DNA of 44,371 nt from Escherichia phage 6949: the sequence record OL362273.1, one strand, 5' to 3'. Numbering within the stretch: the stretch's first letter is position 1; every line of letters starts with the position of its first letter. Both the position numbers and the translations under genes were made by a program. This document shows, in pieces, positions 2,377-20,782 of the stretch. The notes under the pieces were generated by a model. That model did not search any database and was not told the DNA's origin. It worked only from the letters and a program-made list of their open reading frames with translations.

Positions 2377-2397
2377 TTACTGGACACTATAGAAGGA
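2375..2397 (+). promoter_or_regulatory. SP6-type phage promoter downstream of the terminase genes
   Basis: AATTACTGGACACTATA followed by GAAGGA; the predicted +1 G is at 2392. Confidence 0.8.
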
Positions 2398-2530
2398 AGA
2401 CCCAGATAATAAGAGAAATAATAGGTAATATAGGTTAACCTAGGTTATATAGGTATGCCTTAGTATGGGTGTACTCCTGTACACCCTATTCCTTACTTCC
2501 TTACTATATTTACATAATAGGAGAGAGACA

Positions 2531-2809
2531 ATGGCTAATGATTATAGTAGTCAACCATTAACAGGTAAGTCTAAGCGAAAGCAGGTACAACCTGTAAGTG
2601 AAGCACTAATGCTTCCGGTAATCTCAAAAGAGGAAGCTAGTAAGAAAATCAATGTTATTAATGATGCCACCAAATCAGGTAAACAGAAAGGGGCCATGGT
2701 GTGCCTTGAAGTGGAAGGTGGTGTATTGAAGATTGCTATCGCGGTTGATGGCAAAGAAGATTCAGAGTGGAAGTTAGTAACAGTGGAACCAACTGTTAAC
2801 CCAGTTTAA
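2531..2809 (+). CDS. Hypothetical protein, tandem paralog A (SGKQKGAMV motif)
   Basis: ATG 2531 follows RBS AGGAGAG. The protein shares the block SGKQKGAMVCLEVEGG..KIAIAV with the next gene. Confidence 0.55.
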   Translation: MANDYSSQPLTGKSKRKQVQPVSEALMLPVISKEEASKKINVINDATKSGKQKGAMVCLEVEGGVLKIAIAVDGKEDSEWKLVTVEPTVNPV

Positions 2810-2827
2810 GATAAGGAGGAAGATTAC

Positions 2828-3127
2828 ATGGCTAAATATGGTACTACAGGTTCTGTTACTGGTCAGGCTTTTCGAGTAAAAGCAGTACAAACTATTGCAA
2901 CGGCAATCCCGATGCCTGTTGTTAAAGAAGCAGACCTTAAGAGTAAAGATCACCCTATCAACATCAAACATTTATCAGGTAAACAGAAAGGTGCAATGGT
3001 TGCTCTTGAGAAAGGTGACATAACCTTACATATTGCTGTTGCACGTGGTAGTGAACCCACAGACCCTTGGGATGTAACTGGTATGGAAGAGGAAGCTGTT
3101 ACTCCAGCAGGGAATAATAATGCTTAA
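2828..3127 (+). CDS. Hypothetical protein, tandem paralog B (SGKQKGAMV motif)
   Basis: RBS AAGGAGGAAG precedes the ATG. It is a paralog of the preceding ORF (SGKQKGAMVALEKGDITLHIAVA). Confidence 0.6.
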   Translation: MAKYGTTGSVTGQAFRVKAVQTIATAIPMPVVKEADLKSKDHPINIKHLSGKQKGAMVALEKGDITLHIAVARGSEPTDPWDVTGMEEEAVTPAGNNNA

Positions 3128-3464
3128 TAAATACTTCAAGCGTAAAGAGTTTGCTTGCCGTTGTGGCTGCGGTACATCCACTGTTGATGCTGAATTACTA
3201 CAGGTAGTCACAGATGTGCGTGAGCACTTTGGTTCTCCTGTAGTTATCACTTCTGGGCACCGCTGTGCTAAGCACAATGCTAATGTAGGAGGAGCTAAGA
3301 ACTCCATGCATCTTACTGGTAAGGCTGCTGACATTAAGGTGTCTGGTGTTGGCCCAATGGAGGTGCGTGCATACCTCTGCAATAAATACCATGATAAGTA
3401 TGGTATTGGTGCTTATCCTACTTTTACCCATATCGACGTTAGAGATAACAAAGCAAGATGGTAA
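3120..3464 (+). CDS. Endolysin, peptidase M15-like zinc peptidoglycan peptidase
   Basis: The 114 aa translation carries SGHRC.KHN..VGG...S.H..G.A.D and FTHIDVRD motifs, which fit the H/D/H zinc-binding pattern of M15 family peptidases. It sits in the lysis region. Confidence 0.7.
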   Translation: MLNKYFKRKEFACRCGCGTSTVDAELLQVVTDVREHFGSPVVITSGHRCAKHNANVGGAKNSMHLTGKAADIKVSGVGPMEVRAYLCNKYHDKYGIGAYPTFTHIDVRDNKARW

Positions 3465-3572
3465 GATGCATTGAATGGTGTGAACGCATGGTTGCTAAGG
3501 CTTCAGAGGAAGGTAATTATGAAGATTGGCAGAACTACTCAACTTTATTAGCACAATGGAAAGGGAGGTGCA

Positions 3573-3722
3573 ATGAAAAAGCTGTTCAAATCTAAGAAGG
3601 TTGTAGGTGCACTAGTTGCATTGGCAATTGCTCTTGTTTCTGTAGGTCTTGGTGTAGACCTTGGCTCTGGCACGGAATCCTCTGTGACAGATGTGGTCTG
3701 CCAAGTGATCACCTGTGAATAA
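3573..3722 (+). CDS. Small membrane protein (49 aa), possible lysis accessory protein
   Basis: This ORF is below the track size cutoff. RBS GGGAGGTG precedes ATG 3573. The protein has a basic N-terminus (MKKLFKSKK), one hydrophobic helix, and a short C-terminal tail with two Cys. Confidence 0.4.
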   Translation: MKKLFKSKKVVGALVALAIALVSVGLGVDLGSGTESSVTDVVCQVITCE

Positions 3723-3936
3723 GTTTCTAGAAGTTCTGGCAGGTCTTATTGGCCTGCTTATTTCTGCTAAGAAGAAACAAGAAGAGAAGGAGGCACAAAG
3801 TGAAGCGAATCATGTTAGTGACAACCCTGCTGATTGGTTCGCTGACCACTTCCGGGTGTCAGCAGGCGTTACCAGAGAAAGCAATGGTGAAACCTCTGAG
3901 GCCGACGCTGACGGAAGTTTACGAGGTAGACGATAA
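3715..3936 (+). CDS. Putative i-spanin-like ORF (weak)
   Basis: A GTG-start ORF with an N-terminal hydrophobic segment (FLEVLAGLIGLLISA) followed by a charged region. It overlaps the o-spanin candidate in another frame. Both the start codon and the membrane topology are uncertain. Confidence 0.25.
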   Translation: MNKFLEVLAGLIGLLISAKKKQEEKEAQSEANHVSDNPADWFADHFRVSAGVTRESNGETSEADADGSLRGRR

Positions 3937-4009
3937 GGTCTGCTTTAGTAAGCCTGACGCTACAAAATTAGGTTTGTATATTCTTTCGCTAGAACGAGGG
4001 TATAATTAA
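3812..4009 (+). CDS. Putative o-spanin (Rz1-like outer-membrane lipoprotein)
   Basis: ATG 3812 opens MLVTTLLIGSLTTSGC, a signal peptide with a lipobox-like TSGC, followed by a Pro-rich mature region. It overlaps the preceding ORF in another frame, as Rz/Rz1 pairs do. Confidence 0.5.
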   Translation: MLVTTLLIGSLTTSGCQQALPEKAMVKPLRPTLTEVYEVDDKVCFSKPDATKLGLYILSLERGYN

Positions 4010-4038
4010 TACATAGCTTTATGTATCAGTGTCTTACG

Positions 4039-4061
4039 ATTTACTGGACACTATAGAAGAG
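4039..4061 (+). promoter_or_regulatory. SP6-type phage promoter upstream of tailspike 1
   Basis: ATTTACTGGACACTATA followed by GAAGAG, with the predicted +1 G at 4056. A leader hairpin lies at 4072-4089. Confidence 0.8.
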
Positions 4062-4140
4062 GTAAGATAGCGCCGTTCTTTTGAGCGGCCTATTACTAGC
4101 CAATCTTCATAGGGAGGGTTGGAAAGTAATAGGAGATAGC

Positions 4141-18133: not shown

Positions 18134-20666
18134 TTGGAAGAAGGAGGCAGAAGGTCGTATCCTCGTGATGGATGCGGAAGCTAAAGGACTCCTTGACGCT
18201 ATCCGATATGGACACCGTGAAGATGTGCATATCATTTGCTGCATGGATTTGCTTACTACCGAGGAGTTTCTCTTCTTTGACCCGTATGAGATGCGCGACC
18301 CTGAGGCAAGGGAACGCCTGAAGGAGTGGGAAGGCCACCAAGACGGAACCTTGATTGATGGTGTTAACTTCCTGAAGCATTGTGAAGCTATTGTGTCACA
18401 GAACTTCCTAGGGTATGACGGACTTCTCTTTGAGAAAGCATTCCCTGATATTTGGAAAGGCTTTAACTATACCGAGAAGCGCGGTAAGGGCAGACTCCGT
18501 GCTGACCTGTGTCCGGTGCGAGTCATGGATACGCTGGTGATGAGTCGCCTGTTAAACCCCGATAGACGCCTTCCTCCGCAAGCATATGCCAAAGGTATGG
18601 GTAACGTCGCCCCTCACTCAATTGAGGCGCACGGCATCCGTATAGGTCGCTATAAACCGGAGAACGAGGACTGGTCTAAACTAACTGACCACATGGTTCA
18701 CCGTGTACGTGAGGACGTGGCGATTGGTCGTGACTTGTTCCTCTGGCTCTTTAACGGGGAATGGATGGAGCACAAACGCCGTGGCGTGAATAAACGCACG
18801 GGCCTAGGCATTGAGACAGCCTTCCACATGGAGTCCATTGTGGCGCTGGAGATGAGCCGTCAGGCCGAGCGTGGGTTCCGTCTGGACATCGACAAGGCTT
18901 TGGCCCGATGCGAAGAATTGGACGCTAAGATTGATGAGACAGTCGCAGCGTTCCGCCCTCACATGCCTATGCGTATCAAGTCTAAACCTTTTAAACCGGA
19001 AGAAAAGAATGAAGTATGCCAACGCGCAAATGAGTATGGAGCTAGCAACAATATACCTACTGTCCTTGACCCCTCACACTTTCTTCATGCCGAGAGACGA
19101 GGAGATCGCAAGACAGTATGGAGTGTCACTACTAAGTCTGGTGATTGGTCGGCTAGTGTCAAGAAAGACTTTCCTCACCTTAGAGGAAACCGTAATGACA
19201 CGCCAAGCATCAAGTGGATTGGCGCTTACTCGCCTGTTACTTTCGAAGAGATTCCCTTGGGTAACAGGGATACAGTTAAGCAAGTGCTCTATGATTATGG
19301 ATGGAAAGGTGTTGAATTTAACGATACCGAGCAAGCGCATCTCGATGAGCACGGAGTGTTACCCAAACCTTGGAGTGGTAAGATAAATGAAAAGTCCCTT
19401 ACTTTATGGCAAGAAAGAGCCGCACGTGAAGGTAAAACAGTCCCTGATTGGTGCTTGGGTATCGCTGCATGGTACATACTCGTATCCCGTCGTGGTCAGA
19501 TACTCAACCGTGGTGACGTTGAAGCCTTCAACGAGAAGGGAACGTGGCCCTCGCAGGCTGGTGTACGAAAGTGTCGCGGCCTTGTACCTGTAGCATTCAA
19601 CAAGGAGCTAGGAATCAATGCGCAGCAATACTACGAGAGGTACGGATGTTGGCCTACGTCTGACAAAGATGACGGAGAGTGGCGTGTTCCAGCTGTTGCT
19701 ATTAGCATTGGCACTTCTACGTTCCGTATGCGTCATCGTAACGTGGTCAATATTCCTGCCCGTGGCTTGTATCCTTTACGTGATTTATTCATAGCAGGGA
19801 AAGGCAAGCTAATCCTTGGTTGTGACGGTGCAGGTCTTGAACTGCGTGTCCTGTCTCACTTCATGAATGACCCTGAGTACCAAGAGATTGTACTGCACGG
19901 TGATATTCATACGCATAACCAGATGAAGGCTGGTCTTCCTAAGCGTGATATGGCGAAGACGTTTATATACGCCTTCCTCTATGGCTCTGGTATAGCCAAC
20001 CTTGCAGCAGTATGTGGTGTTACTGAGGAAGAAATGAAGGAAGTTGTGGCAAGATTCGAGATTGAACTGCCGTCTCTTGCACGTCTTCGTGAGAATGTTA
20101 TCGCACAAGGTAACAAGTTTGGCTACCTGCAAGCACCTGATGGGCATTGGGGTCGCATCCGCATGTCTGGTGGTGAACTTAAAGAGCACACGATGCTTAA
20201 CGTATTACTCCAGATGACTGGCTCTTTGTGTATGAAATATGCATTAGTCAAGGCATTTGCAGTAATGCGCAAGGAAGGTGTAGCTTTGGATGCTATGGGA
20301 AATCCTTGTGGTGTGGCTAACGTGCATGATGAAATCCAGATGGAAGTTCCTGAAGAGGAGGTCTTGTATCTTAACTACGACCTACCTTTCACCTTAGATG
20401 GGTTCGAAACAGAGAAGGCTGCTGTGAAAGCAGTTTTCGATGCAGAGGAGAAACGTGTTCATGTGGATTCTGAAGGACGTATGTGGTCTGCTGCAAACCT
20501 CGTTAGCGTTGATGCTGATGCTGGTGTGTTGCATTGCCAGCGCCGTTATCACCGTGCAGGTCATATCATTGCCGACGCCATGACTTGGGCAGGGCAGTAT
20601 CTGAAGATGCGTTGCCCGATGGCAGGAGAATATAAGATTGGCGCAAGCTGGAAGGAAACACACTGA
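18120..20666 (+). CDS. DNA polymerase, family A (T7 gp5-like) with 3'-5' exonuclease domain
   Basis: The N-terminus has the Exo I motif (VMDAEAKG). The polymerase motifs are GCDGAGLELRVLSHF, KTFIYAFLYGSG and VHDEIQ. ATG 18120 follows RBS GGAG; the track start at 18087 is a TTG. Confidence 0.93.
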   Translation: MKSIDWKKEAEGRILVMDAEAKGLLDAIRYGHREDVHIICCMDLLTTEEFLFFDPYEMRDPEARERLKEWEGHQDGTLIDGVNFLKHCEAIVSQNFLGYDGLLFEKAFPDIWKGFNYTEKRGKGRLRADLCPVRVMDTLVMSRLLNPDRRLPPQAYAKGMGNVAPHSIEAHGIRIGRYKPENEDWSKLTDHMVHRVREDVAIGRDLFLWLFNGEWMEHKRRGVNKRTGLGIETAFHMESIVALEMSRQAERGFRLDIDKALARCEELDAKIDETVAAFRPHMPMRIKSKPFKPEEKNEVCQRANEYGASNNIPTVLDPSHFLHAERRGDRKTVWSVTTKSGDWSASVKKDFPHLRGNRNDTPSIKWIGAYSPVTFEEIPLGNRDTVKQVLYDYGWKGVEFNDTEQAHLDEHGVLPKPWSGKINEKSLTLWQERAAREGKTVPDWCLGIAAWYILVSRRGQILNRGDVEAFNEKGTWPSQAGVRKCRGLVPVAFNKELGINAQQYYERYGCWPTSDKDDGEWRVPAVAISIGTSTFRMRHRNVVNIPARGLYPLRDLFIAGKGKLILGCDGAGLELRVLSHFMNDPEYQEIVLHGDIHTHNQMKAGLPKRDMAKTFIYAFLYGSGIANLAAVCGVTEEEMKEVVARFEIELPSLARLRENVIAQGNKFGYLQAPDGHWGRIRMSGGELKEHTMLNVLLQMTGSLCMKYALVKAFAVMRKEGVALDAMGNPCGVANVHDEIQMEVPEEEVLYLNYDLPFTLDGFETEKAAVKAVFDAEEKRVHVDSEGRMWSAANLVSVDADAGVLHCQRRYHRAGHIIADAMTWAGQYLKMRCPMAGEYKIGASWKETH

Positions 20667-20782
20667 TGGATAGGCTTGACATTATTTGCCTATTCTTCAC
20701 TCTCTTTCTTACACTCCTTATGCTTGCTTGTTATGGGAGTATGAGACTAGATATACCTGATGAAGAAGAGGGTTACGACTAA
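20666..20782 (+). CDS. Tiny hydrophobic peptide (38 aa)
   Basis: The ATG overlaps the polymerase stop (TGATG). The peptide has one transmembrane-like helix and ends ..GYD. It is below the track cutoff. Confidence 0.35.
   Translation: MDRLDIICLFFTLFLTLLMLACYGSMRLDIPDEEEGYD

Follow-up and report, generated by a model that had tools for sequence, protein, structure and literature searches.

Organisation of the lysis locus

We have analysed the lysis genes of Escherichia phage 6949 in a sequence of 44,371 nucleotides (OL362273.1; below, the window, with positions given on its plus strand), and in particular the small open reading frames (ORFs) behind its endolysin gene that are candidates for the inner-membrane spanin (i-spanin) and outer-membrane spanin (o-spanin). 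The endolysin gene (3120–3464; 114 amino acids, a predicted M15 zinc peptidase) and four small conserved ORFs, all on the plus strand, lie in an operon (2397–4039) between two promoters for the phage RNA polymerase: a match to the K1-5/SP6-type consensus at the operon head (2375–2397) and an exact consensus match (4039–4061) before the tailspike genes, the tailspike ORF starting at 4081. Given these two promoters, we regard everything from a pair of paralogous ORFs upstream of the endolysin gene through the last small ORF as one transcription unit. Over positions 2400–4100 the window is 93% identical to K1-5 and 97% identical to Escherichia phage 6948, and the 92 phage records that match this region are nearly all Vectrevirus or SP6-like. 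On the strength of these matches we read the window as the genome, in circular permutation, of a podophage of the K1-5 type (Autographiviridae, Molineuxvirinae; Vectrevirus).

The four small ORFs, here called o45, o49, o73 and osp, encode 45, 49, 73 and 69 amino acids, respectively, and none has a Pfam match at E ≤ 0.1. A first, sequence-only reading of this region had listed ORFs at 3573–3722, 3715–3936 and 3812–4009, among them an outer-membrane lipoprotein candidate. The three ORFs exist and correspond to o49, o73 and osp, but the start of the third has to be moved: an AAGGAGG at 3787–3793 stands 6 nucleotides 5′ of a GTG at 3800, which is most likely the start of osp (3800–4009), the ATG at 3812 being an internal methionine. 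The lipoprotein candidate is upheld by the osp lipobox, its conserved cysteine and the Gln that follows it. The fourth conserved ORF, o45 (3458–3595), was absent from that reading.

The osp product has a signal peptide ending at the lipidated cysteine (MKRIMLVTTLLIGSLTTSG/C; lipobox TSG/C) and a mature part of 50 amino acids, in which a Pro/Lys-rich linker precedes a highly conserved C-terminal domain, VCFSKPDATKLGLYILSLERGY. The lipobox cysteine is conserved in all relatives. A residue other than Asp after the lipidated cysteine directs lipoproteins to the outer membrane; in osp this residue is Gln, and in the relatives Gln, Gly, Ser, Ala, Thr or Val, so that outer-membrane sorting is predicted. 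The protein matches phrog_8971, 'Rz-like spanin' (E = 2e-38), and a six-frame regular-expression scan of the window found no other lipobox ORF near the lysis cassette. The gene overlaps o73, begins 77 nucleotides after o49 and shares the operon of the endolysin, which is where an o-spanin gene is expected. We take osp to encode a predicted outer-membrane lipoprotein and o-spanin candidate.

The o49 gene (3573–3722), with a GGGAGG at 3563–3568 before its ATG, encodes a predicted bitopic inner-membrane protein: five N-terminal lysines, a 19-residue apolar transmembrane domain (TMD) and a 21-residue acidic tail with a conserved CxxxxC at its end; the net charge of the whole protein is +1. Its best 19-residue window has a Hessa sum of −1.2 kcal/mol and a mean Kyte-Doolittle (KD) value of 2.64, and by hydropathy the protein would be a clean N-in/C-out anchor with textbook i-spanin topology. 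The predicted periplasmic tail, at 21 residues and without a predicted coiled coil, falls short of the domain expected of an i-spanin. The protein matches phrog_4712, a family for which our profile search returned 77 clusters of 45–75 amino acids. A six-frame scan for a second lipoprotein partner of o49 elsewhere in the window gave nothing convincing.

The o73 gene (3715–3936) starts with a GTG that overlaps the o49 stop codon (TGTGAATAA) in all SP6-like relatives. The sequence before GTG 3715 contains no Shine-Dalgarno motif, and o73 would therefore presumably be translated by coupling to o49. Its last 137 nucleotides overlap osp, which is read in the +1 frame of o73; this is the gene overlap expected of an i-spanin. 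The conserved core of the protein (residues 1–48) has a Leu-rich helix at its N-terminus and also contains the cluster KKK, a helix with the sequence EAQSEA and the motif DNPADWFADHF; an acidic, disordered and unconstrained tail follows. The net charge of the whole protein is −3. An AlphaFold2 model has helices at residues 3–29 and 38–45 (over PADWFADH) and disorder elsewhere (mean predicted local distance difference test score, pLDDT, 61), without the extended helical or coiled-coil periplasmic domain expected of an i-spanin.

The soluble product of o45 carries a CxxWC motif and matches phrog_1312 (E = 4e-18). The gene overlaps both the endolysin stop codon (ATGGTAA) and the start of o49. It is kept in our relatives L001–L023, with a varying start codon position, and also occurs in Klebsiella phage vB_Kp_H01, Proteus phage PM116 and a Pseudomonas MR4-like contig; it is without annotation in K1-5 and LL11. 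It may be a further component of the lysis cassette.

Selection on the small genes

We aligned 23 distinct relatives, whose endolysins are 77–98% identical, and computed Nei-Gojobori ratios of nonsynonymous to synonymous differences (pN/pS), with sums taken over all pairs. Each of the 23 relatives keeps the four small ORFs. The endolysin gene, o45 and o49 have own-frame pN/pS values of 0.22, 0.26 and 0.27, and values above 1 in the other frames. The o73 frame is open in every one of the relatives, at a length of 61–73 amino acids. At positions 3723–3799, which only o73 occupies and which the annotations of K1-5 and LL11 show as a non-coding gap of 77 nucleotides, pN/pS is 0.33 in the o73 frame versus 3.5 and 1.55 in the other two, and diversity by codon position is 0.21/0.054/0.35; this codon-periodic pattern of substitution shows the stretch to be protein-coding. 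Where o73 overlaps the signal peptide of osp (3800–3859), diversity drops to 0.099, versus about 0.24 elsewhere, and pN/pS is 0.16 in the o73 frame versus 0.60 in the osp frame: the overlap is doubly constrained. Further downstream, at 3860–3936, o73 evolves neutrally over its last 25 residues (0.96), and the stretch used by osp only (3937–4006) has a pN/pS of 0.13. We conclude that o49, o73 and osp are real genes under purifying selection; from the pattern along o73, its functional part is approximately the first 48 residues.

A terminator scan picked out a GC-rich hairpin of 8 base pairs on the plus strand within the o73 coding sequence (3738–3758). All eight pairs are kept in all but two of the 23 sequences (15 of 17 distinct variants), the changes are single-sided wobble changes, and some synonymous sites are invariant. 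One could thus suppose that the 73-codon frame is not a gene and that the 77-nucleotide gap is kept by this hairpin together with the ribosome-binding site of osp, a supposition to which the missing Shine-Dalgarno motif at GTG 3715 lends some colour. Against it stand the codon-position diversities and the low pN/pS confined to the o73 frame, the frame and its overlap with the upstream stop codon that persist in every relative, protein homologues of o73 at 25–45% identity, and the lack of any compensatory double change in the hairpin among the 23 sequences; we give it next to no credence. The hairpin as the reason for conservation is rejected on the same codon-periodic substitutions, which come without such double changes, and a role as terminator is rejected for most relatives because the U-tract is not conserved among them. 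The hairpin might act on the stability of the mRNA or on how osp, which lies 3′ of it, is translated.

Distribution of o73, osp and o49

The o73 protein matches phrog_9219 over the whole profile (E = 3e-33, 1–68 of 68). A profile search of 1.84e9 representative proteins returned 47 clusters, 45 of them of 49–95 amino acids; the two longer hits (103 and 132 amino acids) align by the C-terminal part only and are probably ORFs that were called wrongly. All 44 distant homologues that we scanned match phrog_9219, and Pfam yielded nothing above noise for any of them. Four features recur across the family: an N-terminal helix rich in Leu, a cluster of basic residues, a helix of the form K.EQ..AQ.EAD with the motif [DN]P..WF..HF.G, and a tail that is acidic and of low complexity. 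The P..WF..HF motif persists among homologues at 25–45% identity in unrelated nucleotide contexts. A word-index search for a full-size relative of o73 gave only proteins of 53–73 amino acids. With hhalign, homology of the o73 family to T7 gp18.5 (probability 0.3%) and to the o49 family (0.6%) was rejected. A frameshift fusion of o49 and o73 was also rejected, as the o73 start codon is kept everywhere and the upstream genes in other clades are unrelated.

The genomic contexts of distant o73 homologues were reached by way of a degenerate DNA pattern and the osp profile; single-protein scans of IMG/VR returned nothing, tblastn against isolate phages returned nothing or the known clade only, and a search of 185,579 reference genomes found no prophage copies. 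The osp profile retrieved 62 IMG/VR loci, 61 of them with complete context. In all 61 an o73-like ORF overlaps the osp-like gene, with osp in the +1 frame. By comparison, o49 is found in 28 of the 62 loci, namely in the SP6/K1-5-like clade and one relative, and is absent from 33 of the 61 complete ones. In the loci without o49, the gene upstream of o73 is phrog_8494-like (two TMDs), phrog_9685-like (with a TPTxxDD motif) or of other kinds. All of these upstream proteins are holin-like in form, various endolysin types precede them, and with a holin-like gene upstream in all 33, o73 is what is left in the i-spanin slot. The start of o73 overlaps the upstream stop codon by 1, 4 or 8 nucleotides in 58 of 59 distinct combinations of o73 and upstream gene; in the remaining combination the start could not be placed. 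The only components present in every locus are thus o73 and osp, and they carry the two most conserved motifs of the system.

Published annotations of the locus

The region as such is not new, close relatives already having annotations for it; what remains is a conflict of annotation and a cleanly testable question about a very small, widespread module of lipoprotein and partner. In the spanin survey of Kongari et al. 2018 (PMC6139136), K1-5, K1E and SP6 are listed as having 'separated' two-component spanins with a 77-nucleotide gap: the i-spanin is the 49-residue protein, remarked upon as 'Too small?' with 21 periplasmic residues, and the o-spanin has 69 residues. The K1-5 counterparts of osp and o49 are 99% and 98% identical to those in the window, with the same lengths of 69 and 49 residues and the same gap, so that these are the same genes; the curation differs in leaving out o73, which takes up the 'gap' and runs on into the o-spanin gene. 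The o49 product is likewise the assigned i-spanin in the LL11 record (MH729818) and its genome announcement, and in version 2 of the SP6 GenBank record (AY288927.2).

For the SP6-like phage UAB_Phi78 the same survey lists an 'overlapped' pair, in which the gene of a singleton i-spanin of 69 residues shares 110 nucleotides with that of an o-spanin from the K1-5 family (PMC6139136). By coordinates and length this i-spanin is the o73 homologue (our relative L009). The locus is homologous to the window, yet the curators chose the opposite inner-membrane partner; since o49 is present in UAB_Phi78 as well, and o73 in K1-5, both curated architectures describe one three-gene locus. Elsewhere o73 is unannotated, 'hypothetical' or, in Proteus phages, a 'membrane protein', and in SP6 it is labelled 'o-spanin': gene 48 (AY288927.2 39607–39804; L039 1123–1320) encodes a Cys-free protein of the o73 family, VAGLLGLLLAYKKK..., and the true lipoprotein ORF, which lies in the +1 frame and has its end at L039 1396, is without annotation.

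The sequence-only reading had noted that no clean full-length inner-membrane partner accompanies the lipoprotein, and that the inner spanin may be unusually short or the arrangement atypical. The latter agrees with the remarks 'Too small?' and 'Too short' in the supplement of Kongari et al. 2018. The former holds insofar as neither o49 nor o73 has a periplasm-spanning domain, but there are two conserved candidates, not zero.

Comparison with other lysis systems

As in lambda Rz/Rz1 and T7 gp18.5/gp18.7, the lipoprotein gene of the window is read in the +1 frame of a partner gene within the lysis cassette. The lambda and T7 partners, however, have about 145–155 amino acids, whereas the candidates in the window have 49 or 73 and no coiled-coil periplasmic domain. 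The T7 spanin genes lie between those for the terminase subunits; in the window they are 3′ of the large subunit gene, adjoining the endolysin gene.

A closer match for o49 is found in the pair of Vibrio phages ICP3, VP4 and N4, in which a 47-residue protein, 30% identical to o49 and collinear with it over a plan of KKK, TMD, GVDL and CxxxxC, adjoins a small lipoprotein. This mini-spanin pair was likewise flagged 'Too short' (Kongari 2018, PMC6139136). In the ICP3-like phages the gene for the o49-like protein lies in what is the Rz/Rz1 slot of T7, between the genes for the two terminase subunits, with the lipoprotein gene directly 3′. These phages differ from the window in that the lipoprotein is not homologous to osp, o73 is absent and the pair stands between the terminase genes. 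The PP1-like Pectobacterium phages have an o49-like protein and no o73, and there a 38-residue lipoprotein, with a mature part of only ~22 residues, is encoded on the other side of the M15 endolysin gene. In ICP3-like and PP1-like phages alike, the mature part of the small lipoprotein that comes with the o49-like protein starts as C-x-V-x-I-V-K-D-S-x-x-V (L043 2908–3105, ICP3; L116 1648–1869; L024 3873–3989, PP1; L117 1029–1145), the likeness of the PP1-type protein being weak (E = 8e-4).

Other small lysis proteins offer parallels of role. In phage phiKT, gp28 is described as a 'disruptin', a cationic amphipathic peptide that replaces spanins in a spaninless phage (bioRxiv 10.1101/515445). 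Both gp28 and o73 are small, helical, possibly amphipathic proteins of podophage lysis cassettes. However, o73 is not cationic (net charge −3) and is always tied to a lipoprotein gene, whereas phiKT is described as spaninless. A disruptin role for o73 or o49 was rejected on their net charges of −3 and +1 and the presence of the lipoprotein gene. In prophage LambdaSo of Shewanella, a 65-residue membrane protein from in or near a lysis cassette, Lcc6, is needed in addition to holin, endolysin and spanin (bioRxiv 10.1101/2024.01.23.576932). It sets a precedent for lysis with a fourth or fifth protein, as o49, o73 or o45 might be. We expect no homology between Lcc6 and these; its action is at the holin step, and the Rz/Rz1 of LambdaSo are of full size. 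Phage Mu reportedly also requires an extra small membrane protein for lysis, 'releasin'.

A possible three-part set and its alternatives

We lean, tentatively and with rather less than even confidence, towards a three-part set in which o73 and osp are the constant pair, with an Rz/Rz1-like gene overlap, and o49 is a lineage-specific inner-membrane partner. Lysis would follow the standard late course of an SP6/K1-5-type podophage and begin, as is conventional, with the T7-type holin (1–195) permeabilising the inner membrane, upon which the signal-less M15 endolysin (3120–3464) would reach the peptidoglycan and cut it. The outer-membrane step would then fall to a miniature spanin-like set expressed from one operon: o49 as a bitopic inner-membrane protein with a short periplasmic tail and two cysteines, o73 produced via coupling to the o49 stop codon, and osp, whose +1 reading frame begins within o73, as an outer-membrane lipoprotein. 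We think that o49 serves as an inner-membrane partner or anchor inherited from a T7-like 'mini-spanin' lineage, as in the Vibrio ICP3-type phages. What our analysis demonstrates are the identities of the genes, their coding status, selection and linkage, and the hydropathy of o49; the joint action of the three proteins at the outer membrane, any physical contacts and the topology of o73 we infer.

Several points weigh against such a set. The N-terminal helix of o73 is a weak TMD by hydropathy: in the window its apolar run is 12 residues, followed by KKK, with a mean KD value over 19 residues (KD19) of 1.27 and a Hessa sum of +8. The family median of KD19 is likewise 1.27; 14 of 50 members reach a KD of 1.6, no member has an apolar run of 17 residues or more, and the median number of charged residues among the first 22 is four. 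T7 gp18.5, an accepted i-spanin, scores similarly low on the same crude scales, and the UAB_Phi78 homologue passed the pipeline of Kongari et al. 2018; the verdict on the o73 TMD only leans negative. The KKK after the helix would favour a cytoplasmic C-terminus, and the last third of the protein is unconstrained. The total periplasmic length of o49 and osp, 71 residues, is rated 'Too short' in PMC6139136, and we found no experimental tests of o49, o73 or osp as SP6/K1-5 spanin candidates in the literature. Three remote loci have, 3′ of the o73/osp pair, an additional ORF of 100–138 amino acids with a TMD and coiled-coil-like sequence (L084 2669–3085, L088 2698–3000, L090 2652–2999; one weakly matches an Rz-like PHROG, E = 1e-3), which may be a conventional i-spanin coexisting with o73. 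Lastly, physical gene overlap by itself keeps o73 and osp together, and their co-occurrence is therefore no independent proof of partnership.

A simpler composition would have o73 as i-spanin and osp as o-spanin in an overlapped pair, with a different role at the inner membrane for o49, which might for example be an additional holin-like protein, serve as antiholin or help to release the endolysin. The linkage of o73 and osp in all 61 loci, 33 of which are without o49, speaks for this, as do the order of the remote cassettes (endolysin, holin-like protein, o73, osp), the curation of the UAB_Phi78 homologue as an overlapped i-spanin (Kongari 2018), the label 'holin' that RefSeq and PHROG give to o49, and Lcc6 as a documented additional small membrane protein in lysis. 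We nevertheless consider it unlikely, though a serious contender: o73 has no convincing TMD and its charges are the reverse of those for N-in/C-out insertion, while o49 has the textbook topology with periplasmic cysteines and its relatives in ICP3-like phages sit with a lipoprotein in the T7 Rz/Rz1 slot. The same strengths of o49, namely its strong type II TMD and conserved periplasmic CxxxxC, are the case for the separated pair as annotated, in which o49 and osp are the spanins and o73 is overprinted, with an unrelated or dispensable function. This is how K1-5, K1E, SP6, LL11 and version 2 of the SP6 GenBank record have been curated, and the ICP3-like and PP1-like phages, in which o49-like proteins come with lipoproteins and no o73, agree with it. 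It has no explanation for the 33 loci in which osp occurs without o49, and where the upstream membrane proteins have no periplasmic domain reaching the lipoprotein; at 3800–3859 it is o73, not the signal peptide of osp, that is under the stronger constraint (0.16 versus 0.60); and the 21-residue tail was rated too short by its own curators. We regard this pair as decidedly improbable.

The periplasm is roughly 20 nm or more wide. As no candidate obviously bridges ~20 nm, we reserve a modest share of belief for an outer-membrane step, in SP6/K1-5-type phages and the others that carry phrog_9219 with the lipoprotein, that is not of the periplasm-spanning Rz/Rz1 type, one that would employ the 50-residue lipoprotein and the obligate o73 with its 48-residue core, with o49 as a third, interchangeable component. 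In that reading o73 would not be an integral type II membrane protein; it would be a weakly anchored, releasable helix, or a protein of the cytoplasm that gets to the lipoprotein only once the holin has opened the membrane. In composition this non-spanning mechanism overlaps the three-part set that we favour as well as the two-part readings.

K1-5, K1E and SP6 relatives are in wide use as therapeutic and model phages, and three proteins under selection, with an o73/lipoprotein pair invariant across 61 loci, give annotators a consistent picture. If it is true that proteins of ~50 residues disrupt the outer membrane, the lower limit on the size of a functional spanin would be one that the current periplasm-spanning model does not readily account for.

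Endolysin, holin and terminase genes

The endolysin matches Peptidase_M15_3 over the whole profile (PF08291; E = 3e-33, 114.6 bits against a cutoff of 23.2, positions 1–108 of 108) as well as phrog_894, 'endolysin' (E = 3e-45). Its H64 and D71 (SMH64...D71) align to H154 and D161 of 1lbu, the Streptomyces Zn D-Ala-D-Ala carboxypeptidase, which we take to be zinc ligands; the third ligand would be H104 in the motif FTHID, outside the stretch aligned to 1lbu. Inspection of the sequence found no hydrophobic N-terminal segment, and holin-dependent export would therefore be expected. The protein is thus a predicted cytoplasmic zinc peptidase of the M15 family (M15_3/M15A). Such an M15 endolysin was on record before for K1-5, K1E, SP6 and LL11.

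The holin gene (1–195; 64 amino acids) matches PF10746 (E = 1.5e-27, 95.5 bits against a cutoff of 25.4) and phrog_920, 'holin' (E = 6e-28). It stands directly 5′ of the gene for the small terminase subunit (179–478; PF11123, phrog_891), which is followed by that for the large subunit (475–2376; an ORF of 633 amino acids whose K1-5 and LL11 counterparts are annotated so). The terminase genes (179–2376) therefore stand between the holin and the other lysis genes, and the LL11 and K1-5 records have the same layout. The sequence-only reading had described this split of the lysis genes and an M15 zinc peptidase in place of the T7-type amidase. The peptidase is corroborated by the family matches, and the layout is as it described. 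The split is no peculiarity of the phage: T7 gene 17.5 has the same place in the T7 record, and a holin gene before the terminase genes is the ordinary arrangement in the T7 supergroup.

Further features of the window

Eight matches to the promoter consensus (ATTTACTGGACACTATAGAAGAG, at most three mismatches) stand at 2375, 4039, 14256, 16556, 21497, 21960, 23106 and 31882. All eight are on the plus strand, with none expected from shuffled sequences. Apart from osp, the six-frame lipoprotein scan of the window brought up one noteworthy plus-strand candidate, an ORF of 38 amino acids at 20666–20782 (MDRLDIICLFFTLFLTLLMLAC...) with a hydrophobic N-terminus and an atypical lipobox-like MLAC. The paralogous ORFs upstream of the endolysin gene (2531–2809 and 2828–3127, plus strand) encode ~95 amino acids each, have a common SGKQ.GAMV motif and no Pfam match. 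Their RefSeq label, 'acetyl-CoA acetyltransferase', comes by way of phrog_2725 and is probably a propagated misannotation; the ORFs are far below the size of that enzyme. Pectobacterium phage PP1 has three copies of this paralogous ORF (L024 2989–3861).

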